A DNA stretch of 62,171 nucleotides from a virus (IMGVR_UViG_3300044613_000656:1-62171); one strand, 5' to 3'; positions 2,773-57,939 are shown, counted from the stretch's first letter. The notes: generated by a model from the sequence alone, not told the origin. A program made the numbers and translations.

Positions 2773-4287
2773 ATGGGTGCATCCGAACTTAGTCCTGAAC
2801 TACTTGAGCAGGTCTTACCAAAACTACCGATAGATAAACAAGCGGTTGCTAAACAGATCTTGGAGGAACTCTCCAAGCGCAAACGCAAAAATAAAGCACA
2901 AGACAAATTTTTAGATTTTGTCAATGCAATGTGGGAGACATTTATACATGGACGGCATCACGAGATCATGGCAGAAGCCTTCGAGCGAGTGGCTCGCGGG
3001 GAACTTAAACGTCTCATCATCAACATGCCACCCCGACATACAAAATCTGAGTTCGCCTCTTACCTGCTACCCGCGTGGTTCCTTGGAAAATACCCTACAA
3101 AAAAGGTCATTCAGACAAGCCACACCGCAGAACTTGCAACAGACTTCGGACGTAAAGTGCGAAATCTCGTTGACAGTGAAAATTACAAAGCCATCTTCCC
3201 CAAGGTCTCACTACAGTCAGACAGCAAGGCTGCTGGACGATGGAACACTTCCCACGGCGGCACATACTTTGCTATTGGTGTGGGCGGCGCTGTCACAGGT
3301 AAAGGTGCAGACCTCTTGATCATTGATGATCCGCACTCAGAACAAGAAGCGATTCTTGCTGAAGTTAATCCTGACATCTACGACAAGGTATACGAGTGGT
3401 ATTCATCTGGCCCACGTCAGCGTTTGCAACCCGGTGGATCAATCGTGATGGTGATGACACGTTGGAGCAAACGTGATCTAACAGCGCAAGTAATTAAAGC
3501 AAGTGTGCAACGTGGTGGTGAAGAGTGGGAAGTAATTGAACTACCTGCGATCCTACCAAGTGGCAATCCACTGTGGCCTCAGTTTTGGAGCCTAGAAGAA
3601 TTAACTGCACTGAAAGATGAACTACCAATTCACAAATGGAACGCACAGTACATGCAAGCACCAACAGGTGCAGAAGGTGCGTTAATAAAACGTGAGTGGT
3701 GGAAGGTGTGGGAACACGATAAACCACCTAAGTGTGATTACATTATTCAGTCATGGGATACAGCGTTTAGTAAAACTAGCCGCTCTGACTTTAGTGCGTG
3801 TATAACGCTTGGCATTTTTCATCCAGAAGATTCACCGAACCCGCAGATAATTTTGCTCGATGCGTTTAAAGAGCGACTTGAGTTTCCAGAGTTAAAAGAA
3901 AAAGCGCTTGAGTTGTATAAAGACTACGAGCCAGACTGTTGCATCATTGAAGCAAAAGCAGCCGGTGCACCTCTGGTGTATGAACTGCGTTCTATGGGTA
4001 TCCCTGTGCAGGACTACATACCAAGCAGGGGTAATGACAAGATTACCCGGGTCAACTCAATTGCTGATATTTTTGCTTCGGGTCTGGTGTACGCCCCGGA
4101 TGCTCGGTGGGCAGAAGAGGTAATAGAAGAGTATGCTTCGTTTCCAGCAGGCGAGCATGATGACTTAGTGGACGCAATGACACAGGCTCTGATACGCTTT
4201 CGGCATGGCGGGCTTATTCGCCTAGAATCCGATGAGCCGGATGATCCTAGTTTTTTCAAGTCGCGGCGTTCCAAGGGGTATTACTAA
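2773..4287 (+). CDS. terL: Terminase large subunit
   Basis: INMPPRHTKS Walker A variant, LLIIDDP Walker B, nuclease motifs QSWDTA and HDDLVDA. Confidence 0.97.
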   Translation: MGASELSPELLEQVLPKLPIDKQAVAKQILEELSKRKRKNKAQDKFLDFVNAMWETFIHGRHHEIMAEAFERVARGELKRLIINMPPRHTKSEFASYLLPAWFLGKYPTKKVIQTSHTAELATDFGRKVRNLVDSENYKAIFPKVSLQSDSKAAGRWNTSHGGTYFAIGVGGAVTGKGADLLIIDDPHSEQEAILAEVNPDIYDKVYEWYSSGPRQRLQPGGSIVMVMTRWSKRDLTAQVIKASVQRGGEEWEVIELPAILPSGNPLWPQFWSLEELTALKDELPIHKWNAQYMQAPTGAEGALIKREWWKVWEHDKPPKCDYIIQSWDTAFSKTSRSDFSACITLGIFHPEDSPNPQIILLDAFKERLEFPELKEKALELYKDYEPDCCIIEAKAAGAPLVYELRSMGIPVQDYIPSRGNDKITRVNSIADIFASGLVYAPDARWAEEVIEEYASFPAGEHDDLVDAMTQALIRFRHGGLIRLESDEPDDPSFFKSRRSKGYY

Positions 4288-4297
4288 AGGATGAGAT

Positions 4298-6748
4298 ATG
4301 GCAATCGATAAGGCTATAACGCAAGCCCCGTTGGGGTTAGATCAAGAGTTAATGTCCTCTGAGCCGGATATTGAGATCGAGATTGAAGACCCTGAATCGG
4401 TAGAAATACGGGCCGGGGGGCTAGAAATAGAGATTGCCAAGGGCGGGGGCGGCGAGGGTATTGATGAGTTCACCGCCAACCTAGCCGAGTATTTGGACGA
4501 AGGCGCCCTGTCCGACCTAGCAGGGGAAATGCTAGAAAACTTCCAAACGGACAAGGACTCCCGCAAAGATTGGGAAAAGACGTACTTTGACGGGCTAGAG
4601 TTGCTAGGCTTAAACATGCAAGAGCGCATGGAGCCTTGGGAAGGGGCATGCGGGGTGTTCCACCCGATCCTGTCTGAGGCCGTAGTTCGCTTCCAAGCCG
4701 ACTCCATCATGGAGACTTTCCCTGCCAGTGGCCCCGTGCGGACACAGATTATTGGGAAAATCACTAAAACTAAGGAAGATGCAGCCGCCCGTGTCCGTGA
4801 AGACATGAACTACCAACTCACGGTCAAGATGCCTGAGTATCGTGCAGAGCACGAAAGAATGTTGTGGAGCCTAGCCTTGGCGGGTTCGGCCTTCAAAAAG
4901 GTCTACTTTGACCCAAATCTTGATCGTCAAGTCGCTGTTTTCATCCCAGCCGAGGATTTTGTGGTGCCCTATGGGGCCTCAGATCTGCTGACCTGTGAGC
5001 GCTACACCCATGTGATGCGGAAAACAGTCAACGAAGTCAAGAAATTACAGATTGCTGGCTTTTACCGAGACATTGACTTACCCGAACCAGAGTATGGGTC
5101 GGTAGATCGTAGCGATTTAAAGGCTCAAAGTGACGAAGCAAACATTGTTCACGACGACAGATATCAGATTTTGGAGATGCACGTCGATTTGGACATTGAA
5201 GACGACCCGCTTCGGGACGAGAACGGCATCGCTATACCCTATGTAGTGTCTGTCGAGAAGCAAACCCAGACGATACTTGCCATTCGGCGCAACTGGAACC
5301 CTGACGACAAACTAAAAGCCAAGCGTTTACACTTTGTTCACTATGTTTACATTCCCGGTTTTGGGTTTTATGGGTATGGGTTAATCCACCTAATCGGTGG
5401 TCATGCCAAATCCAGCACTTCTATACTTCGTCAACTTGTCGATGCGGGCACTTTGGCGAACTTGCCGGGTGGCTTGAAGACCCGTGGACTGCGGATTAAG
5501 GGTGATGACACCCCGATCTCCCCGGGAGAGTTCCGAGATGTAGACGTTGCAAGCGGGAAAATCAGCGAAAACATCGCTTTCTTGCCTTACAAAGAGCCAA
5601 GTCAGGTGCTATTGGCTCTTATGGATAGGATCGTTGATCAGGGGCGCGGTCTTGCCGCCGTTTCTGAACTAAAGATCACTGACGTAAACAAGGAAACACC
5701 GGTGGGGACTACATTGGCCCTGCTAGAAAGATCTTTAAAGGTGATGTCAGCCGTTCAGGCTCGACTACATGCCTCGATGAAGATGGAATTTGGGCTTTTG
5801 GCGGCAATAATTGCCGAATTTGCCCCCGATGAGTACGAATATGAGCCGCAAACCGATGATGAGATGGTTCCGGCGACCCGAAGCGACTACGAAGTTACAG
5901 AAATCATCCCTGTTTCCGATCCAAATGCGGCAACAATGTCCCAGCGGGTGGTTCAGTACCAAGCAGCCCTCCAATTAGCCCAAACGGCACCCCAGTTATA
6001 CGACATGGCGCAGTTACATAGGCAGATGTTGGAGATTTTGGGGGTACGAAACGTCGCAAAACTGATTCCGACGGCTGAAGATGAGGTTCCAAAGGATCCC
6101 ATCACGGAAAACATGAACGCAATCAACCTAAAACCGCTGAAAGCCTTCATTTATCAGGATCACGAAGCCCATATCCGGGTTCATATGAACTTATTACAAG
6201 ATCCTTTGATGCAACAGATGATTGGGCAGAACCCAGCAGCCCCCCGTATCCAAGCCGCAGCACAGGCACATATTGCCGAGCACTTGGCGTTTGCCTACCG
6301 CCAGCGTATGGAGGAGGCTATGGGTGTTGCCCTGCCGCCGCCTGATATGAAGATGCCTGAGCAGTTTGAGGTTGAGTTGGCCCGTGTCGCGGCCCAAGCC
6401 TCTGACTTGGTGTTGGGTAAGAGTAAGACCGAGATTGCGGCACAGCAGGCTCAGATCGCTGCCAATGACCCGATCACACAGATCCAGAAGCAGGAGTTGG
6501 CGCTAAAAGCAGCGGAAATTGAAAGAAAGTCTAAGAAAGACGCAACGGACGCCGCCGCTAAAGCGGATCAGATCCGCATTGAGGAGGAGCGTATCAAGGC
6601 TCAAGCCGAGATTGAAGGCGCTCGGTTGGGTATAGAAGTTGCCAAGGCCAAAGAAGATATGAAAGGGCGCTTTGAGGCTGAGGGAGTACGTCTAGGGGTA
6701 GACATGGCGCGGTTACGACAAGACAAGTCAAAGCCACCTACCACCTAG
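4298..6748 (+). CDS. Portal protein
   Basis: 816 aa after terL; GSAFKKVY, GFGFYGYGL, ETPVGTTLAL motifs; long Q/A-rich C-terminal barrel. Confidence 0.9.
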   Translation: MAIDKAITQAPLGLDQELMSSEPDIEIEIEDPESVEIRAGGLEIEIAKGGGGEGIDEFTANLAEYLDEGALSDLAGEMLENFQTDKDSRKDWEKTYFDGLELLGLNMQERMEPWEGACGVFHPILSEAVVRFQADSIMETFPASGPVRTQIIGKITKTKEDAAARVREDMNYQLTVKMPEYRAEHERMLWSLALAGSAFKKVYFDPNLDRQVAVFIPAEDFVVPYGASDLLTCERYTHVMRKTVNEVKKLQIAGFYRDIDLPEPEYGSVDRSDLKAQSDEANIVHDDRYQILEMHVDLDIEDDPLRDENGIAIPYVVSVEKQTQTILAIRRNWNPDDKLKAKRLHFVHYVYIPGFGFYGYGLIHLIGGHAKSSTSILRQLVDAGTLANLPGGLKTRGLRIKGDDTPISPGEFRDVDVASGKISENIAFLPYKEPSQVLLALMDRIVDQGRGLAAVSELKITDVNKETPVGTTLALLERSLKVMSAVQARLHASMKMEFGLLAAIIAEFAPDEYEYEPQTDDEMVPATRSDYEVTEIIPVSDPNAATMSQRVVQYQAALQLAQTAPQLYDMAQLHRQMLEILGVRNVAKLIPTAEDEVPKDPITENMNAINLKPLKAFIYQDHEAHIRVHMNLLQDPLMQQMIGQNPAAPRIQAAAQAHIAEHLAFAYRQRMEEAMGVALPPPDMKMPEQFEVELARVAAQASDLVLGKSKTEIAAQQAQIAANDPITQIQKQELALKAAEIERKSKKDATDAAAKADQIRIEEERIKAQAEIEGARLGIEVAKAKEDMKGRFEAEGVRLGVDMARLRQDKSKPPTT

Positions 6749-7378: not shown

Positions 7379-8440
7379 ATGGCTAATGAAGAAATCGTAA
7401 CAACACTAGAAACAATCAATAACGACCTGAAAGCCAAGGCAGAAGAGTCTACCCCAGACGTTGATTTGGGGTATGAGGAAGCGTCTGCTCAAGTGGCTGA
7501 AGTCAAGGCTTCAAAGGAGACCAAGGGTAAAAAAGCCCCCGATTTTGAGATAGAGATCGTGGACGACACCCCTCCCGAGGATCAGAACCGCAAGCCTATG
7601 AAAACCGCCCCCAAGGAGACGGACGAGATAGATGCGGTCAACGATAAAGTCCAAAAACGCCTAGATGAACTAAAGCGGGCGTGGCATGACGAGCGCAGGG
7701 CAAAAGATAAAGCCTCTCGGGAGCAAGCCGAGGCTCTAGCCTATGCCAAGCAGGTTTTAGAAGAAAATAAACGCCTGAAATCAAAGTTAACAGAGGGCGA
7801 AAAGGTGCTTCTTGAACAGGCACAGGCTCGCACCGATGTTGCACTACAAGCGGCAAAACGTGGTCTCAGGGAAGCCCAAGAATCTGGCGACCCGGATAAG
7901 GTCGCTGAGGCAATGTCTGAGATTAGTCGGGCTACTATGGAGCAGGAAAACTGGAAAAGGTATCAACCCCAGTTTGCGGCCCAAAAAGAAGAGACTTTAC
8001 AACCGGAAGATAATTCAGTACCTTATCAACAGGTTGTGCAACCGCAAGTGCCGCCGCCAGACCAGAAAGCAATCAACTGGTACAACCGCAACACTTGGTT
8101 TGGTGTTGACGAGGAAATGACGGCATTGGCGTATGCACAGCACGAGAAATTAGTTAAGACTGGGTTAAGTCCTCAGTCTGACGAATACTACGAGCGTATT
8201 GATGCTCGGCTTCGGCAAGTTTTTCCCGATAGGTTCGAGGAGAATGATTCTGCAAAAGATGAAACTCCAGAGCCACAGAAGGTAGAAAAACGCCAACAGA
8301 CAACGGTGGTAGCACCGGCGACACGAACGACCTCAAGTAAAAAGATTACGCTCACCAAATCACAGGTGGCTATTGCTCGACGCTTGGGTGTCCCCTTAGA
8401 GGTATATGCGAAACAAGTTGCTATGCAGGAGAATAGATAA
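7379..8440 (+). CDS. Probable capsid scaffolding protein
   Basis: Acidic coiled-coil protein with C-terminal LTKSQVAIARRLGVPLEVYAK, upstream of capsid genes. Confidence 0.75.
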   Translation: MANEEIVTTLETINNDLKAKAEESTPDVDLGYEEASAQVAEVKASKETKGKKAPDFEIEIVDDTPPEDQNRKPMKTAPKETDEIDAVNDKVQKRLDELKRAWHDERRAKDKASREQAEALAYAKQVLEENKRLKSKLTEGEKVLLEQAQARTDVALQAAKRGLREAQESGDPDKVAEAMSEISRATMEQENWKRYQPQFAAQKEETLQPEDNSVPYQQVVQPQVPPPDQKAINWYNRNTWFGVDEEMTALAYAQHEKLVKTGLSPQSDEYYERIDARLRQVFPDRFEENDSAKDETPEPQKVEKRQQTTVVAPATRTTSSKKITLTKSQVAIARRLGVPLEVYAKQVAMQENR

Positions 8441-9523: not shown

Positions 9524-10441
9524 ATGGCTATTTCACGTTCGCAACTATTAAAAGAACTCCTGCCCGGACTTAATGCTCTGTTTGGTATGGAGTACGCTCG
9601 CTACGGCGAAGAGCATAAAGAAATTTATGCTTCTGAGACTTCTGAGCGTTCGTTTGAAGAAGAAACCAAACTGTCTGGCTTCTCAGCCGCCCCAGTTAAG
9701 TCTGAAGGCGCTGCGATTGCTTATGACAACGCGCAGGAAGCATTTACGGCTCGCTATACGCACGAAACCATTGCTTACGGTTTTGCGATTACTGAAGAGG
9801 CAATTGAGGACAACCTCTATGACTCACTCAGCGCTCGTTATACCAAAGCATTGGCTCGTTCGATGGCTTACACCAAGCAGACCAAGGCTGCTGCCGTTCT
9901 GAACAACGGTTTCACTAACTCCAGCCAGTATTACGGCGGTGATGGTGTGCCTCTGTTCTCAACTCAGCACCCGTTGATCTCTGGTGGTAACAACTCAAAT
10001 CGTCCCACCACTGGTGCCGACCTGAACGAAACTTCGTTGGAAAACGCTGTTATTCAGATTGCTGCTTGGACGGACGAGCGTGGTCTGCTGATTGCTGCAA
10101 AGCCACGTAAGTTGATCGTGCCGCCCGCATTGATGTTCGTTGCAACTCGTTTGCTAGACACAGAACTACGTGTTGGCACGGCTGACAATGACATCAACGC
10201 TCTGAAATTCATGGGTTCTATCCCCGAGGGTTACACAGTTAACCACTTCTTGACGGATACGAACGCATGGTTCTTGACGACAGACGTACCTAACGGAATG
10301 AAGCACTTCGTTCGTACCCCGATGGCAACATCGATGGACGGAGACTTCGACACCGGTAACGTCCGTTACAAGGCTCGTGAGCGTTATTCGTTTGGCTGGT
10401 CTGATCCGCTCGGAATGTTTGGATCACCCGGTTCGTCCTGA
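9524..10441 (+). CDS. Major capsid protein (Mu gpT-like family)
   Basis: MAISRSQLLKELLPGLNALFG, GGDGVPLFSTQHP, PRKLIVPP, YKARERYSFGWSDP; biased codons; strong SD; terminator after. Confidence 0.93.
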   Translation: MAISRSQLLKELLPGLNALFGMEYARYGEEHKEIYASETSERSFEEETKLSGFSAAPVKSEGAAIAYDNAQEAFTARYTHETIAYGFAITEEAIEDNLYDSLSARYTKALARSMAYTKQTKAAAVLNNGFTNSSQYYGGDGVPLFSTQHPLISGGNNSNRPTTGADLNETSLENAVIQIAAWTDERGLLIAAKPRKLIVPPALMFVATRLLDTELRVGTADNDINALKFMGSIPEGYTVNHFLTDTNAWFLTTDVPNGMKHFVRTPMATSMDGDFDTGNVRYKARERYSFGWSDPLGMFGSPGSS

Positions 10442-10473: not shown

Positions 10474-10550
10474 TCTAGGATTTTTACTCTTATCGACTGA
10501 CCTAGCAGACTTAGTAGAGATGATAAGAGGAAGTGCTACTACACGAGAGG
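10474..10550 (+). ncRNA. Pseudoknotted RNA element, likely the Mu-gpT-DE motif
   Basis: CTCTTATC/GATAAGAG stem; loop CCTAG pairs with upstream CTAGG; TAGTAG pairs with downstream CTACTA; lies directly downstream of a gpT-like gene. Confidence 0.6.
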
Positions 10551-10556
10551 ATTATC

Positions 10557-11297
10557 ATGGCACGTACTACTTTTTCAGGCCCAGTTCGGGCTGGTTATCA
10601 AGGCGGAAACGCAAACGCACAAAATCCGATAACTCCCACCACTATTAACGCTGGTGATGTTATTGAAGTTAATCAAGGCACTGGAGCATATGGCTTTTAT
10701 GCTCGTGTCGAACCTACTGTAGGATTTGGCTCAAGCACTTATTTGACTCCGGGTGAGTCTTATGGTGTTTTTGGGCGTAGTCAATCTGGCGCACCATTTG
10801 CAACCCTTCCCAGCACTACGTTTAACCATGTGGCTGGTGTAGTCGGTAACTTTGCGGTGATCGGTACCTATAACAACAATGGTCTGATGGCTGGTGTAAT
10901 GGGTATTATTAATACCAACACCTTATCTGGCGACGCCGCTGTTATGGCGTTTATGGCTGGTGACTCCGGTGTAACTACCGCTCGTTGTGCCTTTGGTGTT
11001 GCAATGGCTCAAACCACTGGTGGTTCAGGCTTTGACTATGGTATTGACCTGAAGATGCAAGATCCGGTCGCTGATGGTGGTGGCCCTTCCAGCGTTATTC
11101 CCTACAAAAAAGCCAACATCCGTATGGAAGATGACGTTGTAATCATGGTCGATGCGGGTGCTCCAGTTAATGGCACTACGGGTGACAACTTTGCTGGTAC
11201 GGGTTCCCTGTATGTTGATTCGTCATCTGGTGTTCTGTATATCAACACGGGTGCTATCTCCAACCCAACTTGGGTTGTTGTTGGTACTCAGACCTAA
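10557..11297 (+). CDS. Virion structural protein (head fibre/decoration-like)
   Basis: MARTTFSGPV start with GAGAGG SD; Gly/Ala beta-rich; GSLYVD..GVLYIN..W C-terminal motif. Confidence 0.7.
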   Translation: MARTTFSGPVRAGYQGGNANAQNPITPTTINAGDVIEVNQGTGAYGFYARVEPTVGFGSSTYLTPGESYGVFGRSQSGAPFATLPSTTFNHVAGVVGNFAVIGTYNNNGLMAGVMGIINTNTLSGDAAVMAFMAGDSGVTTARCAFGVAMAQTTGGSGFDYGIDLKMQDPVADGGGPSSVIPYKKANIRMEDDVVIMVDAGAPVNGTTGDNFAGTGSLYVDSSSGVLYINTGAISNPTWVVVGTQT

Positions 11298-11473
11298 TGC
11301 TGACTCATAAAGACCCAGAGGTTCAGGCAATGCTTGAACTTCTGGAATCCCAACGAGATCATGTTATGGGCCTAGTGGCTGTTCAAGCAAAGCAAATTTT
11401 GGAATTAAAGACCAAACTTGCTAAGTTAGAAACCACAAATACGGAGAACCAAAATGGCAACAATGCAATATGA
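11297..11473 (+). CDS. Small coiled-coil protein
   Basis: TAATG coupling; heptad pattern. Confidence 0.6.
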   Translation: MLTHKDPEVQAMLELLESQRDHVMGLVAVQAKQILELKTKLAKLETTNTENQNGNNAI

Positions 11474-11768
11474 CGTACTAGCGACAAAACCGCTGGGGCT
11501 TACGGGTAACTTTAAAGATCAAGGCAATAACGACATTCCTCGTTGCCGTGTTAAAACCATTTACTGTAAAAATGGTACTGACGCTGGGTCTGTGGTAGTC
11601 CGTGAAGGTGGTTCTGGCGGCAATGTAATTATGACTATAGAAACCTCAGCGGCTAGTAGCGCGGGTTATACGATCATTCCAATTCCCGGTGAAGGCGTTC
11701 TTGCGAAAGAAGGTGCTTTACATGGAACAGTTACTAACACCGCTTCGGTGACTTTGTTCTATGGCTAA
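11454..11768 (+). CDS. Small beta-rich virion protein
   Basis: GGAG SD; IPGEGVL and VTLFYG terminus. Confidence 0.75.
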   Translation: MATMQYDVLATKPLGLTGNFKDQGNNDIPRCRVKTIYCKNGTDAGSVVVREGGSGGNVIMTIETSAASSAGYTIIPIPGEGVLAKEGALHGTVTNTASVTLFYG

Positions 11769-12015
11769 GACTCCTGCGTGGCAACGCAAAGAGGGAAAGA
11801 ACCCAAAAGGTGGGCTAAATGCCAAGGGTAGGGCATCGTATAACGCTGCTAACCCCGGTAAGCCCGGCCTGAAGGCTCCTCAACCAGAAGGTGGCGCTCG
11901 TAAGAAATCTTTCTGTGCCCGGATGACAGGTATGAAAAAGAAACTAACCAGCGCTAAAACCGCTAACGATCCAAACAGCCGTATCAACAAGAGTCTACGG
12001 GCGTGGAAGTGTTGA
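11761..12015 (+). CDS. Small basic protein
   Basis: AWQRKEGKNPKGGLNAKGRASYN...SFCARM...SRINKSLRAWKC. Confidence 0.8.
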   Translation: MAKTPAWQRKEGKNPKGGLNAKGRASYNAANPGKPGLKAPQPEGGARKKSFCARMTGMKKKLTSAKTANDPNSRINKSLRAWKC

Positions 12016-12016
12016 T

Positions 12017-12250
12017 ATGGAGATGATGCTTTGGAATATGGTGTTGACCGTATTGTTGGGTGTCTTAGCCTATATTGGGCACGAAAAGGCATCTGAAATA
12101 CACAGACTCAACATTTTGATTAACAAAACTAGAGAAGAGGTGGCCCGTGATAACGTCACTCAAGCAGAAATGGACAAGTTTGTTGACCACATTGACCAAC
12201 GGTTTAATAAACTTGAAGCAAAAATTGATCTCCTTATGCAGAAGGGATAA
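12017..12250 (+). CDS. Single-TM coiled-coil protein
   Basis: N-terminal hydrophobic helix then IDQRFNKLEAKIDLL. Confidence 0.7.
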   Translation: MEMMLWNMVLTVLLGVLAYIGHEKASEIHRLNILINKTREEVARDNVTQAEMDKFVDHIDQRFNKLEAKIDLLMQKG

Positions 12251-12253
12251 GAA

Positions 12254-12880
12254 ATGAAAAAGATGAAAACTAAGCGTTATCAGGAAGGGATGAGTGTAGA
12301 AGGTGATTACGAGTCCTCTGATGATTACAAAAATCTAATAAGTGCCGCAGCCCGTGAAAAGGCCGATGCAGAAAAATCAGCCACCCCTGCCGCTCCTGCA
12401 AAAGCAGCCTCTTTTGGCGAAGCATTTAAATCTGCTCGTGGTCGTGGCGATAAGACGTTTGAGTACATGGGTAAAAAGTACACAACGGAAATGGCTGGTG
12501 GTAAAAAGGCCCCTGCTGCTAAATCTTTTGCCGACACTCAGGACAGAGAAGCAGGCGCTAGAGTTACTAGAACTGAACGGCAGAACGCATTGTTTGCTGA
12601 AAATAAGCCGAAGAAATCATCTTCGTATGGTGAAGCCGCTCGTTCAGCCCGTACCCTCGGGGATGTTATGAAAGAAGATTTAGAGCGGTCAGCAGCAATA
12701 AGATCAGGCAAAGAAAAAACCCTTGGTACTCGGTTCCAAGAAGGCATGCGTAAATTTGGTCGTGCTTTAGCAACTGGACAGCCGCAAGGTGGGATGAAAA
12801 AAGGCGGAATGGTTGGTTCTGCTTCCAAGCGTGCCGATGGTTGTGCCCAGCGTGGTAAGACTAAAGGACGGATGGTCTAA
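12254..12880 (+). CDS. Basic protein with C-terminal KKGG...ADGCAQRGKTKG tag
   Basis: ORF; tag shared with next three genes; SFGEAFKSAR...KTFEYMGKKYTT module. Confidence 0.8.
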   Translation: MKKMKTKRYQEGMSVEGDYESSDDYKNLISAAAREKADAEKSATPAAPAKAASFGEAFKSARGRGDKTFEYMGKKYTTEMAGGKKAPAAKSFADTQDREAGARVTRTERQNALFAENKPKKSSSYGEAARSARTLGDVMKEDLERSAAIRSGKEKTLGTRFQEGMRKFGRALATGQPQGGMKKGGMVGSASKRADGCAQRGKTKGRMV

Positions 12881-12882
12881 TC

Positions 12883-13140
12883 ATGGCTGATAAACCACCA
12901 GTTGAGGGTCGCACCGCTTACATCAAAAAGAATATGCCGGATGGCGTGTTAAAAAGTATTTTGGTTAAGGGAAGTGAACTTGTTGATGACATGGGTTTTA
13001 CCCAACAGAAAGAGTACGAAGGGAAAACCCGAGAAGAGGTAGCCAAGAAACCCACGCCCGAGAAAAAGCGGGCTGGTGGTTACGTAAAGGCCGCTGATGG
13101 CTGTGTTCAACGGGGTAAGACCAAAGGAAGGATTGTGTAA
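12883..13140 (+). CDS. Small basic protein with RAGG...ADGCVQRGKTKG tag
   Basis: ORF, shared C-terminal motif. Confidence 0.8.
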   Translation: MADKPPVEGRTAYIKKNMPDGVLKSILVKGSELVDDMGFTQQKEYEGKTREEVAKKPTPEKKRAGGYVKAADGCVQRGKTKGRIV

Positions 13141-13391
13141 TGGTTCGTGACCACGATGAAATCTATGATGAACTTTTGGAAGAAGAGGAACGTAAAAGCG
13201 TTCGTGGTCAACAGAAAAAGGGCACGACAGCAAAACCTCCTGAAAAAAATCCTTCACCTAGTGAAGATATAGAGTACCCCACGCCAACGCCAAAAAAGGC
13301 TAAACCTGTAGTCAAGATTGCGGCGTTGCGTAAGGGTGGTTCGATAGATGGCTGTGCCATCAGAGGGAAAACCCGTGCCAGCCACAAGTAA
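13140..13391 (+). CDS. Small protein with RKGG.IDGCAIRGKT tag
   Basis: TAATG coupling, shared C-terminal motif. Confidence 0.75.
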   Translation: MVRDHDEIYDELLEEEERKSVRGQQKKGTTAKPPEKNPSPSEDIEYPTPTPKKAKPVVKIAALRKGGSIDGCAIRGKTRASHK

Positions 13392-13797
13392 GAAACAAGA
13401 AAGATTTATGCAAGCGGTGGCTAATAACCCAAAGTTTGCAAAAAAGGTGGGCGTACCAACGTCCGTAGGCAAAGAGTTCACTAAAAAGGAAGGTGGAGTC
13501 ATGAAAGAGTCAAAGGCAATGATGAAGAAAGAAGTTTCCTTCATGAAGAAAAAAGGCGCTCCCAAGTCCATGCTCAAGCATGAGATGAAAGAAGCCGGTA
13601 TGAAGAAGATGCGTGCTGGTGGTATGCCGATGGGGCCAGATGGCAAACCCACTTTTGTTGGTGACGGTAAAGGCAAAATGAGATCTGGTGGTCTGGCTGG
13701 TGGTCACAAGTCCGCTGACGGTGTTGCTTCCAAGGGCAAGACTAAAGGCAAGACGGTCAAAATGGCTGGCGGCGGGATGCGCGGCGGGAAGTGCTAA
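13375..13797 (+). CDS. Lys/Met-rich protein with several MxxGG repeats and ADGVASKGKTKG tag
   Basis: ORF track 13348; GTG at 13375 follows GAGGG SD. Confidence 0.8.
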   Translation: MPATSKKQERFMQAVANNPKFAKKVGVPTSVGKEFTKKEGGVMKESKAMMKKEVSFMKKKGAPKSMLKHEMKEAGMKKMRAGGMPMGPDGKPTFVGDGKGKMRSGGLAGGHKSADGVASKGKTKGKTVKMAGGGMRGGKC

Positions 13798-14076
13798 ATG
13801 AGACCGAGCCGGGGCATGGGGGCCATGAACCCCTCTAAGATGCCGAAAGCCAAGACGATCAAGCGGAAAGACAAACCGCAAGACGTTGAAATGTTTGCCA
13901 AAGGTGGTGAGTCTCGGGTTAACGAGGCTGGCAATTACACCAAACCCGGCATGCGTAAGTCTATATTTGAGCGCATCAAGGCTGGCGGCAAGGGGGGTGC
14001 TCCGGGTCAATGGAGTGCCCGTAAGGCTCAAATGCTGGCTATGCAGTATAAAAAGTCTGGTGGAGGCTATAAGTAA
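13798..14076 (+). CDS. Small basic protein (DUF5872-like first half)
   Basis: NYTKP...KGGAPGQWSARKAQMLAMQYKKSGGGYK. Confidence 0.75.
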   Translation: MRPSRGMGAMNPSKMPKAKTIKRKDKPQDVEMFAKGGESRVNEAGNYTKPGMRKSIFERIKAGGKGGAPGQWSARKAQMLAMQYKKSGGGYK

Positions 14077-14429
14077 TGGCTTGGTCAGAAAAGTACAAAC
14101 GCTCTATTGACTGCGATAGTCCCAAAGGCTTTTCGCAAAAAGCGCATTGTGCTGGTCGAAAGAAAAAAATGGCCGGTGGCGGCCTAGCCAAGCCTCAGCA
14201 AAGTCTCAAAGACTGGACTGCTCAAAAGTGGAGAACTAAGAGTGGCAAACCTTCTACGCAAGGATCGAAGGCGACAGGGGAACGGTATCTTCCCTCTGCT
14301 GCAATCAAAGCGTTATCCCCCCAAGAATATGCCGCAACAACCCGAGCCAAGCGTGCAGGGAAAGCCAAGGGAAAACAATTTGTGGCACAGCCTAAGAACG
14401 TGGCTAAAAAGACTGCTGGGTATAGGTAA
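14076..14429 (+). CDS. Small basic protein (DUF5872-like second half)
   Basis: QQSLKDWTAQKWRTKSGK...GERYLP...KQFVAQP preceded by a WSEKYKRSIDC...HCAGRKKK module. Confidence 0.75.
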   Translation: MAWSEKYKRSIDCDSPKGFSQKAHCAGRKKKMAGGGLAKPQQSLKDWTAQKWRTKSGKPSTQGSKATGERYLPSAAIKALSPQEYAATTRAKRAGKAKGKQFVAQPKNVAKKTAGYR

Positions 14430-14434
14430 AAATA

Positions 14435-15382
14435 ATGAGCACAACAACCGGAACCGAACTGTTTAACCTAAACCTCAATGACCTCATTGAGGAGGCGTTT
14501 GAGCGTGCCGGTTCAGAGGTGCGTTCGGGCTATAACGTCCGCACGGCTAGAAGAAGTTTAAATCTGTTGACTATCGAGTGGTCTAACCGGGGCGTAAATC
14601 TTTGGACGATTGAAGAGGGGCAGATCCCGCTCGTTCAAGGGCAGGTAACTTATCCCCTGCCGGTAGACACAATTGACTTGATAGAGCACGTAGTTCGGAC
14701 TAATAACGGGGTGCAGTCTACGCAGACGGATATTAATATCACCCGGATCTCGGTCTCAACTTATGCAACTATCCCTAACAAAATTACACAAGGCCGACCC
14801 ATTCAGGTATGGGTGGATCGTCAGTCTGGAAGTGTTGGAAAGACAGGGTTAACCCTAGCATCAAATATTGTCGCTGCCGACACAACCATTACTCTGTCTT
14901 CGACGCTTGGCTTACCAGCCACGGGTTATGTGACGATTGGTGCTGAAACAATCAACTACACGAATACGACCTCGACTCAACTGCTAAATTGTCTGCGTGG
15001 TCAAAATGGAACCACCGCAGCCTCCCATACGGCTGGGGCTACAGTTACTGCACCTGAACTGCCAAATATCAATGTGTGGCCTGCCCCAGATCAAGGTACG
15101 GCGGCTAGTCCTGTCTATACCTTTGTTTACTGGCGTTTACGCCGGATTCAGGATGCGGGTAATGGCATCAATACCCAAGATATTCCGTTCCGTCTACTGC
15201 CCTGTATGGTGGCTGGGCTGGCCTATTACATAGCCATGAAGATCCCTGAAGGGGCGGCACGGTTAGATATGCTGAAAATGGCATATGAGGAACAATGGAT
15301 GTTGGCCTCTGGTGAAGATCGTGAAAAGGCGTCTGTTAGATTTGTGCCGCGCAATATGTTTGTGACAGGTGGCGGCTATTAA
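14435..15382 (+). CDS. Probable head-tail adaptor protein with inserted beta domain
   Basis: LIEEAFER, ARRSLNLL..EWSNRG.NLW, GLAYYIA; Thr-rich insert with LRGQNGTTAASH. Confidence 0.7.
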   Translation: MSTTTGTELFNLNLNDLIEEAFERAGSEVRSGYNVRTARRSLNLLTIEWSNRGVNLWTIEEGQIPLVQGQVTYPLPVDTIDLIEHVVRTNNGVQSTQTDINITRISVSTYATIPNKITQGRPIQVWVDRQSGSVGKTGLTLASNIVAADTTITLSSTLGLPATGYVTIGAETINYTNTTSTQLLNCLRGQNGTTAASHTAGATVTAPELPNINVWPAPDQGTAASPVYTFVYWRLRRIQDAGNGINTQDIPFRLLPCMVAGLAYYIAMKIPEGAARLDMLKMAYEEQWMLASGEDREKASVRFVPRNMFVTGGGY

Positions 15383-15810
15383 TGGGCAACAAGTTTTCCT
15401 CTGGCAAGTTTTCGATCTCCCAGTGTGATCGGTGTGGGTTTCGGTTCAAACTAAAAGATCTTAGACGGCTAGTTATAAAGACCAAAAACGTAGATATTAA
15501 GGTTTGTCATGAATGTTGGGAGCCAGATCAGCCGCAGTTACAACTTGGAATGTATCCGGTTTATGACCCACAAGCCGTTCGTGAGCCTCGTCCTGATACT
15601 ACGTACTTTCAAGCGGGTCTTAATGGTTTGGAAACAAACCCCGATGGTGGCCCAACTGAAGCGGGTTATGGCGTGCCGACACAGGGCAGTAGGATTGTCG
15701 CGTGGGGGTGGAACCCGGTAGGATTCTATAACCCTCTACTTCTCCCATTCCAACAGAATTTTCTGGTGGCAGACGGGGAGGTAGGGACTGTAACTGTAAC
15801 AACTACATAG
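15382..15810 (+). CDS. Zn-finger virion-region protein
   Basis: CDRC...CHEC, DPQAVREPRPD, C-terminal GEVGTVTVTTT. Confidence 0.75.
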   Translation: MGNKFSSGKFSISQCDRCGFRFKLKDLRRLVIKTKNVDIKVCHECWEPDQPQLQLGMYPVYDPQAVREPRPDTTYFQAGLNGLETNPDGGPTEAGYGVPTQGSRIVAWGWNPVGFYNPLLLPFQQNFLVADGEVGTVTVTTT

Positions 15811-15819
15811 GAGTTGAAG

Positions 15820-16011
15820 ATGGAAAAGACAGCAATGAAAAGGGTGGCTAGGGCCGAAGTTAAGTCACACGAGAAAAAAATGCACGGGGTAAAGAAGATG
15901 CGGGCTGGTGGTAAAACCAACGCCGACATGATGAAATATGGTCGGAACATGGCTAAAGTTATGAACCAGCGCAGCCCGATGCGTGCGCCGTCTAAAAAGA
16001 CAGGGATCTAA
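15820..16011 (+). CDS. Small basic protein with KKMRAGG motif
   Basis: AGGAG SD; HEKKMH and MRAGG motifs. Confidence 0.7.
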   Translation: MEKTAMKRVARAEVKSHEKKMHGVKKMRAGGKTNADMMKYGRNMAKVMNQRSPMRAPSKKTGI

Positions 16012-16013
16012 TC

Positions 16014-16223
16014 ATGGCAAAAGATGACAACAAGTACGTTAAGCCCCAAAAAGACAAGCCGGGGTCAAGCGCAGTAGCCAAGGGCAGTATTGCCGTAAAA
16101 GGTAATGAGGCGTCTTTTGGTTTTAACGGCTACCCCAATGCCATCCCAAGCACTCAGACTGTAAAGACTCGGGGTACGGGCGCGGCTACTAAAGGCACTA
16201 ACTCCAGCACAAAGTTGGGATAA
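16014..16223 (+). CDS. Small basic protein
   Basis: C-terminal KTRGTGAATKG, resembles the RxxGxAxRG tag. Confidence 0.7.
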   Translation: MAKDDNKYVKPQKDKPGSSAVAKGSIAVKGNEASFGFNGYPNAIPSTQTVKTRGTGAATKGTNSSTKLG

Positions 16224-16901
16224 ATGAACTACTCGACGCTATTTCAGACTATTCAGGCGTATTGTGAAAACGACTTTCCAGATACGGTAGTCGCAACCAC
16301 AACGGCTTCGACGACATCTTTTCTCACTAAAGATCAGATTGACACGTTTATCCGGCAGGCTGAACAAAGGATCTTTAATAGCGTTCAACTTCCAGTTGCC
16401 CGGGAAAACGTGACAGGAAACTGTACGGCTAATAACAGATTCTTAACTACTCCCACAGACTGGCTTGCTACGTTCTCGTTGGCTCGGATTGATCCAAGTG
16501 GCTCACAGGAATACCTGCTAAACAAGGATGTTGAGTTTATTCGAGAGTCTTTTCCAAGTCCTACCGATACAGGTGCTCCCACTCACTACGCTATTTTTGA
16601 CGAGAACACATTTATCTTAGGGCCGACCCCCGATGCGGATTACAACATGGAGTTGCATTACTACGCATATCCACCGTCTATTGTCACATCTGGCACGACT
16701 TGGCTTGGCACCAACTTTGACTCTGCCCTACTGTACGGTTCCCTGCTTGAAGCGTATACCTTTATGAAGGGTGAGAAGGATGTTAACGATACTTACATAT
16801 CCCGTTACAATGAAGCACTTGCCATGTTGAAACAACTTGGTGAAGGCAAAGACCGTCAAGATATGTATAGAACTGAACAAGCGAGGTATCCAGTTAGATG
16901 A
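16224..16901 (+). CDS. Probable adaptor/tail tubular protein
   Basis: FIRQAEQRI, GAPTHYA, LGPTPD..Y.MELHYY, ALLYGSLLEA. Confidence 0.7.
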   Translation: MNYSTLFQTIQAYCENDFPDTVVATTTASTTSFLTKDQIDTFIRQAEQRIFNSVQLPVARENVTGNCTANNRFLTTPTDWLATFSLARIDPSGSQEYLLNKDVEFIRESFPSPTDTGAPTHYAIFDENTFILGPTPDADYNMELHYYAYPPSIVTSGTTWLGTNFDSALLYGSLLEAYTFMKGEKDVNDTYISRYNEALAMLKQLGEGKDRQDMYRTEQARYPVR

Positions 16902-23918: not shown

Positions 23919-25043
23919 ATGTGTGAATCCATGACCCAACTTCATATACAAGGGTATTCGCATCTTTCTGGTTTTCTTAGCAAAGACAGTTGTGCGGAGT
24001 TAACAACAGAACTTAAGCGAATTGTTGCTGAAGGAAAAACTACGAAAGATAATCAATGCCCTTTATCAGAAGCCGTTCATGGAGCAGTCATTTTTGATTC
24101 CTTATTAGAGCAACTTCTCCCTAACTTTGAACTTGCATCAGGCAAGAAACTCTACCCAACCTACGCTTATGCCCGTCTGTATGCCCCCGGTGAAGAGTTA
24201 AAGATCCACACAGATCGTCCATCTTGTGAGATTAGCGCCACCCTAACCCTTGGGTTTGAGGGTGATCCTTGGCCTATCTATATGGGTGATGAGGGCGGTG
24301 CCAATGCTTCCAAGATAATGATGGATGTTGGCGATGCCATCTTATACCGTGGGTGCGACAAGCACCATTGGCGTGAGCCGTATAAAGAGGGTCAATGGCA
24401 GGCTCAGGTATTTCTGCACTATGTAGATGCTAATGGCCCTCATGCTGAGTGGAAGTACGATAAACGACCCAAACTTAGCCATCATGAACAAAGTAAAATA
24501 GATTACACATATTGGTTCTTTGATGATGGGTTAACCCCTGAGTCTTGCAGAAAGATAATTGAGAGTTGTGAGTCTCAATCACAGGGTGAAGATGCTTTAG
24601 TAGGGCAAAGCCTTGGGGGTATCCTTAACAAAAACATTCGGGATGTTAAAAAAATACCTCTTCCAATTTACAGGGGTATCGGTGCAACAATGTCTGGTGC
24701 GGCACTTTCTGCCAACCAGCAGGCTTGGAAGTTTGATGTGACCCGCGCCAACCAGTGCGACTACCTTAAGTACGATGTAGACGGTCACTATCACGCCCAT
24801 GTGGATACCTTCATAAACCCAGAAGAAAAAGAGTGCAGGAAGTTAACGGTTCTTGCTTTCTTAAATGACGACTTTGAGGGAGGTCGTCTGTTCCTACAAA
24901 ACGGGCATGAAAAGATTTACCCACCACAAAAACCCGGAACAATTTTAGTTTTTCCTTCTTTTATGCTTCATGGAGTTGAACCCGTTACAAAGGGTATTAG
25001 AAGATCAATAGTGACTTGGATGGTTGGCCCTTGGTTTAAATAG
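23919..25043 (+). CDS. Tandem 2OG-Fe(II) oxygenase (prolyl-hydroxylase-like)
   Basis: Domain 1 HTDR...HWRE; domain 2 HVD...RKLT...DFEGG...HGVEPVTKGIRRS. Confidence 0.9.
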   Translation: MCESMTQLHIQGYSHLSGFLSKDSCAELTTELKRIVAEGKTTKDNQCPLSEAVHGAVIFDSLLEQLLPNFELASGKKLYPTYAYARLYAPGEELKIHTDRPSCEISATLTLGFEGDPWPIYMGDEGGANASKIMMDVGDAILYRGCDKHHWREPYKEGQWQAQVFLHYVDANGPHAEWKYDKRPKLSHHEQSKIDYTYWFFDDGLTPESCRKIIESCESQSQGEDALVGQSLGGILNKNIRDVKKIPLPIYRGIGATMSGAALSANQQAWKFDVTRANQCDYLKYDVDGHYHAHVDTFINPEEKECRKLTVLAFLNDDFEGGRLFLQNGHEKIYPPQKPGTILVFPSFMLHGVEPVTKGIRRSIVTWMVGPWFK

Positions 25044-25051
25044 GAGAAAAA

Positions 25052-25258
25052 ATGATAGGTATGGGTATGGGCGGTGCTATCCGCCAACACATTGCAATTA
25101 AAGGTATTCAGATGAATCTTGCCGCTGTAGAGGCATTTATGCAGGATTTGTACGCAAACGCTGGCCTGACGTTACCCCCCGGATTTGACCCCGTAGAGGA
25201 AGTCATCAGGGTTGTTAACACATTAAGGGAGCAGGGCAAAAATGAAAACAGTAATTGA
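25052..25258 (+). CDS. Hypothetical protein
   Basis: AGGAG SD, packed in operon. Confidence 0.6.
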   Translation: MIGMGMGGAIRQHIAIKGIQMNLAAVEAFMQDLYANAGLTLPPGFDPVEEVIRVVNTLREQGKNENSN

Positions 25259-25460
25259 AGCGCATAAGGTAGACGGGGTAAAAGTATGCCGTTCAGAAGA
25301 AGTCCATGTCTGTGCCGCTTGTGGGTATGACTTAGATGAGGCTGAATTGGCGGCTGACACTTGCTCCGATTGTGGCGCACCCCTGAAGTTACGAAAGTCC
25401 GTATCGGTCTGGGCTACATCCGTACCTAAAGCCGGTGCTAAGACTTGGGGCCAACAATAA
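25242..25460 (+). CDS. Zn-ribbon protein
   Basis: CAACG...CSDCG. Confidence 0.7.
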   Translation: MKTVIEAHKVDGVKVCRSEEVHVCAACGYDLDEAELAADTCSDCGAPLKLRKSVSVWATSVPKAGAKTWGQQ

Positions 25461-26054
25461 ATGGATGTATCTTTTATTGACATAACAAATAATTTTTCAA
25501 TACCAATCATAGACAACTTTTATTCTGAAACAGAACTTGAAAAAATAAAAGGTGAACTAAAGTTATTAAGTGCTGTAGCAGAACTAAAAATTTTTGTTAA
25601 TAAACCAGCCAAAGATGAAGAAGATAGTCCAAAACAAAAAAGTAATTCTTTCTTTTTAGATAATTTGTATGAAGGTAAAAGAAGTTTATCTAAAATTTTA
25701 AATATAAACAGAAAGTTATTTTCGTCAGAATTAAAAACAAAGTTAGTAGAAAAAAATTTATTTTACGATCATATTTTTCATTCAGATTTTGATACGACAC
25801 TATTAAATTTTTATGGGCCAACTGATTATTACAAACCGCATAGAGATACTTCTTGTTTTACAGCATTGACTTTTTTTAAGTTAGAAGAGTTTAGTGGTGG
25901 TAATTTAGTTTTTCCAGAATACGAAATAGAGATTGAACCAGTAGAGAACAGATTGGTTATTTTCCCGGGGTTTATTTTGCATGGCTCAGAAGAAGTTACA
26001 AAAGGAATACGTGTAAGCATGGCTCAGTTTATAAACTATCGTGCAGGGGATTAG
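25461..26054 (+). CDS. 2OG-Fe(II) oxygenase (AT-rich gene)
   Basis: YKPHRD, FSGGNL, NRLVIFPG..LHG..V...R.S. Confidence 0.85.
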   Translation: MDVSFIDITNNFSIPIIDNFYSETELEKIKGELKLLSAVAELKIFVNKPAKDEEDSPKQKSNSFFLDNLYEGKRSLSKILNINRKLFSSELKTKLVEKNLFYDHIFHSDFDTTLLNFYGPTDYYKPHRDTSCFTALTFFKLEEFSGGNLVFPEYEIEIEPVENRLVIFPGFILHGSEEVTKGIRVSMAQFINYRAGD

Positions 26055-53066: not shown

Positions 53067-53310
53067 GCTTACCCCTTGCTCGGATTGCTTCAGCACAGGC
53101 GTTTGCGTAGCACCCCTCAAACTTATCTTTTTCTGCTTGCGCATCACAAATCTTCGCACACTCTTCACGCTCATCAGCCCGGACTAACTTATCAAACTTC
53201 TCAACGTCCAGCCCATCGACAAGGTTCATGCACTCGTTGTACATCTTTATGTGCTTCATCTTTGCCTTCATGTATTCCTTAATTCGTTTCTCGTCGTCTA
53301 GGTCTCTCAT
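53059..53310 (-). CDS. Small mosaic protein
   Basis: DEREECAKICD...CAEAIRARG module. Confidence 0.7.
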   Translation of the reverse strand: MRDLDDEKRIKEYMKAKMKHIKMYNECMNLVDGLDVEKFDKLVRADEREECAKICDAQAEKDKFEGCYANACAEAIRARGKHD

Positions 53311-53633
53311 AGTCTAGTACCCCCACGATTAGCACAAGGCCATACTTGGGCTAACGCATTTACCACAAGAGAATCGGCAGAGTAATGTCGTCTCTCAGGA
53401 TTAATCTCTAGGTACTGCTTGACCACATCCCGGGCTTGCCCTGCTGTTACATTTTGTGGGGCGCATACTTTTACTCTTGCATATACATCAGCCACTCCCT
53501 GTACATAACCAAGGGCAACCATCCTTGGAACGGTTTCTGAGTCATTCATCCTCGACAACAGACCATTGCCGTCTAAAAACTCAGCACTCGCCATACATGG
53601 TACGAACAGCAAACCCACGATTAATTTTTTCAT
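53307..53633 (-). CDS. Secreted Rap1a-like immunity protein
   Basis: Signal peptide; GNGLL, GYVQGVAD, CAP..VT.GQ..DVV..YL...PE.RH, AL...WPC. Confidence 0.8.
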   Translation of the reverse strand: MKKLIVGLLFVPCMASAEFLDGNGLLSRMNDSETVPRMVALGYVQGVADVYARVKVCAPQNVTAGQARDVVKQYLEINPERRHYSADSLVVNALAQVWPCANRGGTRL

Positions 53634-57894: not shown

Positions 57895-57939
57895 AAACTT
57901 CTCCTCATAAATCACATTGTGACTACGCCGCTGCTGTTC

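Follow-up and report, generated by a model that had tools for sequence, protein, structure and literature searches.

A C-terminal tag common to unrelated small basic proteins in the head-neck module of an aquatic podophage lineage: a possible docking element

Introduction

The way in which non-structural proteins are chosen for packing into the head is known for very few phage models, chiefly for T4, in which the capsid targeting sequence (CTS), a short peptide present on unrelated small basic proteins (IPI-III, Alt), takes these proteins into the prohead, from where they are injected with the DNA. Encapsulins possess short C-terminal cargo-loading peptides, placed on unrelated cargo, which bind the inner face of an HK97-fold shell; the scaffolding protein of P22 ends in a basic coat-binding domain, by the charge of which a protein inside the head attaches to the coat; the MuF/SPP1 gp7-type and the “polyvalent” phage proteins combine a conserved virion-targeting part with variable delivered parts; and the adenoviruses have core proteins that are polycationic and associated with DNA, cleavage sites of the GG type, and a basic C-terminal peptide with a Cys (pVIc). 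The subject of the present work is a locus in the virus record IMGVR_UViG_3300044613_000656, the full 62,171 bases of which were analyzed and are referred to here as the window. In this locus four consecutive genes of the + strand (12254-12880, 12883-13140, 13140-13391, and 13348/13375-13797) carry, at the end of otherwise dissimilar proteins, a common motif, the tag, with the general form (M/F)(K/R)xGG, 5-9 residues, (A/G)DG(I/C)AxRGKTKG(R/K)xx, stop, that is, about 25-30 residues.

Compared with these systems, the tag recalls the CTS in being a short peptide common to otherwise unrelated proteins; however, the CTS is N-terminal, has about 10 residues, and is removed by the prohead protease, whereas the tag is C-terminal and has about 28 residues, the two show no likeness of sequence, and the Pfam and PHROG scans of the genome revealed no prohead protease, so the tag does not fall within the CTS class. 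Like the encapsulin peptides, the tag is a short, portable C-terminal element on unrelated cargo, tied to one HK97-type capsid lineage, but there is no common motif, the tag is strongly basic, its cargo consists of disordered polycations instead of enzymes, and its binding to the major capsid protein (MCP) is hypothetical. The P22 element is a folded helix-turn-helix of a single protein that leaves before packaging, in contrast to a linear motif without a confident fold that is found on thousands of bodies. The likeness to the MuF and polyvalent proteins lies in the fact that two modules encoded separately beside the tagged genes (DUF6321 and the N-terminal module of the gene at 14076) are concatenated in a 704-aa cyanomyophage protein; nevertheless, the polarity in the window is reversed, with a conserved C-terminus and a variable N-terminus, and there is no MuF, toxin, or enzyme domain. 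The products gp6.7 and gp7.3 of T7 are also small proteins beside the head genes, and the T7 record describes gp6.7 as injected from the virion, but neither is homologous to the tag (hhalign probability of 0.2% each). As for adenovirus, there is no more than an analogy, with the Cys that occupies the last position in 84 of 232 tagged open reading frames (ORFs), against which stand the lack of any adenain-like protease in the Pfam scan and an unrelated virus realm. Nor is the tag a double-glycine leader of the C39 type, as its GG is part of a C-terminal element and no C39 or other cysteine peptidase was found with Pfam among 53 proteins. The tag thus belongs to none of the systems compared, and represents a motif family of very large size, so far undescribed, in a phage lineage that is common in the environment.

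Results

The four tagged genes

The pattern DG.{3,4}[KR]GKT[KR], searched for in the six frames of the whole 62,171 bases, matches exactly four times, at 12836, 13096, 13347, and 13717, all of them within 12836-13760, the mean expectation from 200 first-order Markov randomizations being 0.0, and a search of the genome with a profile of 48 tails finds the same four places only. The four consecutive genes with one common ending that had been noticed in a first, sequence-only reading of this DNA are therefore real, with ORFs as described there. The distance from the D of the DG to the stop is 14 residues in genes 1-3 and 26 residues in gene 4, where the D is followed by ...TVKMAGGGMRGGKC, the tag being succeeded by a short Gly/Met/Lys extension, ...KMAGGGMRGGKC, with a final Cys. 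The bodies that precede the tags are unrelated, as had been proposed, the best BLASTP result across all six pairs being E=0.16. At the level of DNA, the 10-codon cores of the tags are 50-80% identical, with third positions the most changed, and therefore selection has acted on the peptide and not on the DNA; given that each pair differs by 3-6 synonymous and 1-4 non-synonymous codons, the earlier claim holds as regards the conservation of the peptide, while the statement that the differences are “mostly” synonymous is only a rough one.

Tagged protein 1 (12254..12880; 208 aa, net charge +19), with its tag at 12794-12877 (profile E 2e-19), matches no Pfam, PHROG, or NCBIfam family. Tagged protein 2 (12883..13140; 85 aa, net +7; tag at 13066-13137) was modeled with AlphaFold2 (AF2) from a 33-row alignment, giving a mean predicted local distance difference test (pLDDT) value of 50.6, one low-confidence helix, and no confident fold for the tag. 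Tagged protein 3 (13140..13391; 83 aa, net +4; tag at 13326-13388) has a short spacer and an atypical RASHK end in place of G(R/K)xx, in a tag that overlaps the start of gene 4, and its orthologue elsewhere (P0003) bears the complete canonical form. Tagged protein 4 (13375..13797, tag at 13678-13758), for which a net charge of +24 was scored on the form that begins at the ATG at 13348, has an N-terminal SKKQ module and matches PHROG 16759 (E 3.1e-16, residues 11-48); its start is most likely the GTG at 13375, the position already given in the sequence-only reading, because this yields the MPATSKKQ N-terminus found in relatives.

Reach, position, and consensus of the tag

A profile of the four tails, used to search a collection of 5.8 billion proteins with candidates of at least 89 residues, produced at least 5,861 matches at E<=0.1 among the 8,000 candidates scored, and a Pfam domain was present in none of the 120 matches listed. 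The exhaustive hmmsearch of the 48-tail profile against 1.84 billion representatives (50% identity), a search of the kind that had been proposed for measuring copy number and diversity of cargo, found 8,728 proteins at E<=0.001, with 1,283 at E<=1e-10, and with highly diverse bodies. In 142 of the best 150 of these 8,728 representatives the D is exactly 14 residues from the end, and 16 of the best 150 carry two tags in tandem. In the DNA of viral contigs, a degenerate pattern gave at least 123 loci, with the D at -14 in 108 of the 135 matches listed; a looser regular expression applied to these loci supplied 232 unique tagged ORFs (roughly two for every 3-kb locus), 158 of them with the D at -14. 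Among these 232 the last residue is C (84), V (67), or I (30), and in 38% a Cys occupies the third position of the tag.

The consensus of 154 canonical tails is (M/F)-K-K-G-G-k-V-s-S-A-S-K-R-A-D-G-(I/C)-A-Q-R-G-K-T-K-G-(R/K)-(M/I)-(V/C/I)-stop, with a net charge of about +5, in which the columns D, G, G, K, and T are invariant and R and G near-invariant. A hydrophobic and a basic residue precede the GG, which is conserved in at least 90% and stands 5-9 residues before the DG; this xGG element recurs often within the bodies and between tandem tags. The tag has the spacing of a Walker A motif, GxxxxGK[ST], with G, G, K, and T in all 48 aligned tails, of which 45 had been supplied by a DNA pattern that already demanded these residues; the context of a P-loop NTPase is missing, as the protein ends 5 residues after the T, no NTPase family is matched, and AF2 gives no confident fold.

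No curated family corresponds to the tag in Pfam-A, PHROGs v4, or NCBIfam 20, searched at E<=0.01 with tagged proteins 1-3. A sequence search of the PDB with the tag profile gave a single match, at E 0.63, that covers no more than GGSV, and the searches of NCBIfam and the ESM Atlas gave only unnamed viral clusters, together with DUF6496 at 0.77, which is no more than a lead. Tagged protein 1 has no tblastn match at E<=0.01 in 50,697 phage records, and the 30-aa tail, searched against phage records at E<=10, found a protein common to the phages MinM2, Pag-Yong1, and Pra-JY27 at E 0.8, which was confirmed by inspecting the sequence. Three matches of the same tail in Erwinia jumbo phages were discarded as chance. 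The expectation that this tag has no described function was correct to the extent that we found no family model or paper describing it, outside the supplements of PMC9599517, which may list these ORFs. That paper, on HTVC023P-type genomics, does not use the terms hypervariable, C-terminal, structural module, or basic, and its mentions of motifs or repeats relate to curli genes. Neither was any paper found on DUF6321, Pag-Yong1, Pra-JY27, or MinM2.

Bodies of the tagged proteins

The net charge is positive in all 186 complete tagged ORFs, with a median of +11; for the bodies alone the median is +5, and 25 of the 186 are neutral or acidic. Disorder-promoting residues make up 65% of the bodies and order-promoting residues 18%, the corresponding values for 13 other proteins of the phage being 48% and 35%; K (12.1%), A (12.0%), G, E, P (7.1%), S, and M are abundant in the bodies. 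When the 150 longest of the 232 tagged ORFs were compared with Pfam, 142 gave no match, 4 matched DUF6321, 3 matched DUF6496, and 1 was sub-threshold; with almost no matches, the bodies are not recognizable enzymes, and the earlier suggestion of injected effectors found no support in the enzymatic sense. A total of 93 clusters was obtained from 228 bodies and, separately, 112 BLAST clusters from the 143 bodies of at least 25 aa among the best 150 representatives, a diversity that, together with the 8,728 representatives, bears out the proposal that the system is modular, with many unrelated bodies sharing a single C-terminal tag. Single-linkage clustering joins 95 of the 228 bodies, through weak and partly repeat-driven links.

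Two smaller features of the bodies can be added. A His/Met-rich mini-module, D-K-x-M-I-K-K-A-x-x-x-H-(E/D)-x-x-x-H-x-G-...-T-x-L-K-x-GG, for which a role in metal binding is possible, is found in some tagged bodies (P0077, L007, L013) and also in the untagged product of 15814-16011. Other bodies (L027, L029, L077, L080, L139; 5 of 232 by regular expression) have a Gly-zipper-like hydrophobic start, ...LSPxxGxxxGxGxxG...IPxxL..., that hints at membrane activity.

Genomic setting and capsid lineage

The window and nine related contigs have the same kind of array between the MCP and cement genes and an adaptor-like gene, composed of a DUF6321 protein, a hydrophobic/coiled-coil protein, 1-5 tagged proteins (4, 4, 2, 5, 1, 3, 4, 2, 1, and 3 per genome), and a pair of basic proteins that lack the tag (PHROG 17747 and 14910); the adaptor-like gene is followed by one for a zinc-ribbon-like protein, two for small basic proteins, and one for an SU10-type adaptor. 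In five complete relatives, all 15 of the genome-wide tag matches are in the array, within about 2 kb, and 2-4 kb downstream of the MCP. Untagged head-module neighbors homologous to those of the window accompany 99 of the 123 viral loci listed, and all 51 of the loci of at least 3 kb. Of 10 long viral contigs, 9 have an MCP with 76-88% identity a few kb upstream of their tags, and the tenth is 65% complete; an MCP with 84-87% identity is present on all five of the tag-bearing contigs examined from metagenome-assembled genomes (MAGs), so that the MCP lineage and the tag occur together in 14 of 15 long tag-bearing contigs. The DNA pattern matched 17 times in 185,579 species genomes; about 12 of these matches are genuine, all of them on MAG contigs, five are due to chance, and in no isolate's cellular genome of this set was there a genuine match. 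Since the genuine matches are restricted to MAG contigs, and the five examined all carry the phage MCP, the tag is phage-borne and follows one capsid lineage.

The cultured relatives allow this association to be followed further. The MCP of the window is 73% identical to that of Synechococcus phage MinM2, Planktothrix phage Pag-Yong1, and Pra-JY27, 65-66% identical to those of pelagiphage HTVC023P and the lake phage DSL-LC04, and 55% identical to that of roseophage CRP-902. In the first group there is one tagged protein, just after the capsid genes, of 308 aa, rich in Pro, Arg, and Ala, and ending in ...GRDGCAKRGRTKGRFI, with GRTKG in Pag-Yong1 as against GKTKG. In HTVC023P, DSL-LC04, and CRP-902 (MCP 55-66%), no tag was present in the structural regions of 13.6-19 kb inspected; in DSL-LC04 the corresponding place is still occupied by small basic proteins without the tag, and therefore the array of basic proteins is older than the tag.

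With regard to these relatives, the records of MinM2 (OQ594354, Synechococcus), Pag-Yong1 (OL906435, Planktothrix), and Pra-JY27 (PP438419, Planktothricoides) each have 65,014 bp and gave the same identity, E-value, and bits with two queries despite their different stated hosts, and could represent one phage or nearly so. In addition, the MCP is much more conserved than its neighbors with respect to the cultured relatives (65-73% identity, as against about 40% for the portal and about 30-34% for the scaffold-like protein), and it retains 84-88% identity across lake and marine contigs.

Modularity of the tag and the array

DUF6321 is untagged in the window and in most relatives and tagged in 4 loci, whereas the SKKQ module, tagged in the window, forms by itself an ORF of 50 aa in one relative and of 58 aa in phiKZ-like phages, and is likewise without the tag in other jumbo phages; it also heads PHROG families labeled “virion structural protein,” which is a hint at the level of annotation. 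As the tag is found on both modules, and both also occur without it, it is a portable module and not the product of plain paralogy; a tag always joined to the same N-terminal domain was what the sequence-only reading had named as a refutation of its proposal.

In Synechococcus phage S-PRM1 (L001:2765-4879), the 704-aa protein mentioned above begins with an N-terminal Cys module of the 14076 type and ends in DUF6321, so that modules that are separate in the window (11761-12015 and 14076-14170) are joined in one protein of this cyanomyophage. DNA similarity to DUF6321 extends to 141 phage records, mainly of cyanomyophages.

The remainder of the head-neck module

The genes that surround the tagged ones are all on the + strand, and within the array they abut or overlap; a scan for promoters and terminators gave nothing above shuffled sequences, with no + strand promoter-like site within the array. 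The MCP (9524..10441; PHROG 371, Pfam Phage_capsid_4) is followed by a cement/decoration-like protein (10533..11297), variable among relatives, which has its N-terminus in common with a DSL-LC04 protein annotated as “cement protein,” and by a conserved protein of about 100 aa that ends in ...TLFYG (11454..11768), found at the same position in the relatives examined and with a weak match in HTVC023P. The array of basic proteins opens with the untagged DUF6321 protein (11761..12015, net +18; Pfam 8.4e-20), which belongs to this family with 71.6 bits as against a gathering cut-off of 28.5, and continues with a small untagged protein that is not basic, has a hydrophobic N-terminus and a coiled-coil-like remainder (12017..12250), and has homologues in 38 of the 123 tag loci listed. 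Beyond the four tagged genes are two untagged small basic proteins, one of net charge +16 (13798..14076; PHROG 17747, 1e-31), a conserved member of the array with homologues in 68 of the 123 loci listed, and another of net charge +22 with an N-terminal Cys module (14076..14429; PHROG 14910, 1.8e-35).

The tagged part of the array is closed by an adaptor-like structural protein (14435..15382; PHROG 12985), with a weak match to Pfam SU10_adaptor (1.5e-05) that lies below the cut-off, and homologous to a Pag-Yong1 gene annotated as “portal-adaptor protein.” After it come a zinc-ribbon-like CxxC...CxxC protein conserved in relatives (15382..15810), a small basic protein of net charge +14 that contains ...HEKKMHGVKKMRAGG... 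and matches no Pfam or PHROG family (15814..16011), a further small basic protein whose conserved RGTGAATKG motif is C-terminal (16014..16223), and, at the end of the module, the SU10-type head-tail adaptor (16224..16901; Pfam SU10_adaptor 1.2e-25). The strings FAKGG, RGMGA, KMAGGG, KMRAGG, and RGTGAATKG, described earlier as partial versions of the tag in the neighbors, are indeed present, although their kinship with it finds no support: the comparison of the tag with the C-terminus of the 16014 family by hhalign gave a probability of 3.5% over 7 columns, a likeness that is not significant. This family has a C-terminal motif of its own at 16098-16220, (I/M)K(I/T)RGTG(A/C)ATKG...RGPMx, in all nine genomes aligned, just upstream of the SU10-type adaptor.

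Source genome and samples

The window comprises the whole of the virus record, with a CheckV completeness of 99%, and is a complete 62-kb podophage genome. The Pfam and PHROG scans identify the large terminase (2773-4287), the portal (4298-6748), a GroES-like protein, tail fiber genes, an M15 endolysin, and a leftward replication arm; a scaffold-like protein at 7379-8440 is the candidate for the scaffold, and there are large putative ejection proteins. The last in this run of ejection proteins (37831-41046) is a 1071-aa, DarB-like protein whose PHROG match (5.5e-70) is to the C-terminal portion of very large families, DarB-like or unknown. Among the tail genes, at 23919-26054, are two proteins with 2OG-Fe(II) oxygenase domains, one of them fused to a domain that PHROG labels ferrochelatase-like. 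In the replication arm (56701-59004, - strand) a MoxR-like AAA ATPase adjoins a DUF2201 protein with the architecture of a putative metallopeptidase N-domain and a VWA-like domain, and at 53307-53633 (- strand) there is a match to Pfam Rap1a, a type VI immunity protein family (7.4e-20), despite this being a phage genome.

Near-identical DNA of the window is present in lake, river, and freshwater metagenome runs from at least 12 studies, and the three DNA runs examined, all from lake water, contain exact pieces of it; therefore the phage is a freshwater podophage of the HTVC023P/MinM2 assemblage, relatives of which are also present in marine data. When the segment 9500-17000 was compared with four public runs, many unitigs stopped at or near the conserved modules and tags. 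Unitig depth was tens-fold higher at the MCP, at DUF6321, and at the SKKQ/tag segment than at the tagged bodies, such depths being unable to rank genes. The contrast in depth and the breaks near the tags fit a situation in which many co-occurring strains share modules and differ in bodies. A few unitig joints of low support jump over bodies, for example from 12251 to 12832 (one contig, side 25), and were set aside as too weak to serve as evidence of cassette exchange. One run from an RNA library also contains part of this segment, which is not proof of transcription.

Discussion

We regard the four genes as cassettes. The array that holds them is hypervariable and lies in the head-neck morphogenesis module of phages of a widespread aquatic lineage of podophages, and each cassette would give a small, strongly basic, and largely disordered protein with a short linear motif at its C-terminus. 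The explanation that we favor, with a probability that nevertheless stays somewhat below an even chance, is that the tag is a docking element that would incorporate these polycationic disordered proteins into the phage head. In favor of it, the motif is invariant, terminal, portable, and sometimes in tandem, its bodies are disordered polycations, and it is encoded only among head genes and co-inherited with one MCP lineage. The locking of a motif to the C-terminus is typical of docking peptides, and the tandem tags suggest avidity for a repeated target. The tag would most likely bind a conserved component of the assembling head, be it scaffold, portal, or the inside of the capsid, and the variable polycationic bodies would thus become part of the procapsid, rest on the DNA once it is packaged, and exit with it at infection. 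Capsid loading by the tag, as had been supposed from the outset, is plausible because the tags are all in the head-neck module and tied to one MCP lineage. The stronger proposition, argued by analogy, that this lineage may have evolved a cargo-loading peptide of its own, with which a repertoire of disordered polycations in rapid turnover, with more than 8,000 sequence clusters, would be loaded inside an HK97-fold capsid for co-delivery with the DNA, seems to us doubtful, and less probable than docking as such.

The motif itself, its terminal position, modularity, and diversity, its genomic place, and its tie to one capsid lineage are established, whereas the presence of the tagged proteins in the virion, a protein receptor for the tag, and the role of the bodies are what we infer from them, and the dependence of the docking explanation on the first two of these weighs against it. 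The same can be said of several other points: a position in the late operon is no proof of a structural role; the untagged relatives HTVC023P, CRP-902, and DSL-LC04 presumably assemble normally, and hence the tag would be accessory instead of part of core assembly; the copies internal to tandem tags indicate that a free carboxyl end is not strictly required; and the Walker A-like spacing of G, G, K, and T fits direct binding of phosphate or DNA at least as well. A prediction of the complex between the MCP (15-row alignment) and the tag (48-row alignment) gave scores of 0.00 and 0.00, which, obtained without controls, speak neither for nor against binding.

The strongest of the alternatives, although in itself unlikely, starts from this last spacing: the tag would be a nucleic-acid binder, a minimal phosphate-binding loop that clamps protamine-like or H1-like polycations on the packaged genome or on host DNA with no protein receptor. 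The five invariant columns, together with the near-invariant R and G, reproduce the spacing of Walker A, the charge of the tag, with Lys/Arg on its flanks, and bodies rich in K, A, G, and P are what such a binder would have, and the tandem tags agree with it. A generic DNA binder, however, need not be confined to the last 14 residues of a protein nor keep to one MCP lineage, the beta-strand and helix of a P-loop are lacking around a region that AF2 leaves without a confident fold, and a step of targeting to the procapsid would be needed anyway because proteins cannot enter the head bound to DNA during packaging. On the side of DNA binding there is also the case of cyanopodophage A4, in which the packaged DNA is reported to run along a positively charged cleft of the ejection proteins (PMC12002296). 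Somewhat more improbable is a role within the cell and outside the particle, in which the tag would bind a conserved factor of host or phage and the bodies would tune host takeover or counter-defense. This would agree with the varying content of the array (1-5 tagged genes) among phages whose MCPs are about 85% identical, as is often the case for accessory genes of host interaction, and with the fact that a place in the virion is, up to now, an inference; but the hosts, to judge by MAG bins and habitats, are very diverse, freshwater and marine, a diversity that contrasts with a nearly invariant tag tied to the MCP lineage, every copy is among late structural genes, and 142 of 150 proteins have no Pfam match, the only recognizable domains being DUF6321 and DUF6496 in 7 of the 150.

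The remaining alternatives have smaller chances. That the tag anchors its proteins outside the capsid, in the manner of cement or decoration proteins, with polycationic tails that would stick to cell surfaces or particles, could be argued from an array that directly follows the cement-like gene in a lineage with variable decoration genes; we consider it a slight chance, as highly basic, disordered, and protease-exposed tails are unusual in decoration proteins, and DUF6321 and the N-terminal module of 14076 are found in other phages within large multi-module proteins that are not of this class. Cleavage after the GG, which the sequence-only reading had put forward and which would free either the body or a basic C-terminal peptide of about 20 residues, is very improbable. 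The high conservation of the GG and the hydrophobic and basic residues before it do resemble the GG-type sites of the adenovirus protease, of ubiquitin-like proteins, and of double-glycine leaders; against this, no prohead, C39, adenain-like, or other head protease appears in the Pfam and PHROG scans (53 and 32 genome proteins), the sole peptidase matches being the M15 endolysin-type peptidase and the DUF2201 domain of the replication arm, and xGG is a recurring and tandem-repeatable unit of the bodies and of the stretches between tags instead of a unique site. As for paralogy, in which a single ancestor would have been duplicated and its low-complexity N-termini would have drifted with only the C-terminus under constraint, it is scarcely credible in view of the modules that exist with and without the tag and of the four bodies of the window, which have no BLASTP similarity, even if low-complexity bodies would diverge fast and the single-linkage clustering does join 95 of 228 of them by its weak, partly repeat-driven links.

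Whatever weight is given to each of these explanations, in this lineage a defined peptide of about 28 residues is already found in nature fused to “cargo” in thousands of ways. Should the tag be a loading signal, it would give a direct experimental handle on the packing of heads and would define a new class of virion-delivered, intrinsically disordered polycations; and if these are in truth loaded as cargo, the tag would constitute a natural and transplantable handle for packaging foreign proteins into phage heads. Even if its function proves to be different, a motif that occurs in about 8,700 protein clusters and had not been described merits a family model and annotation.

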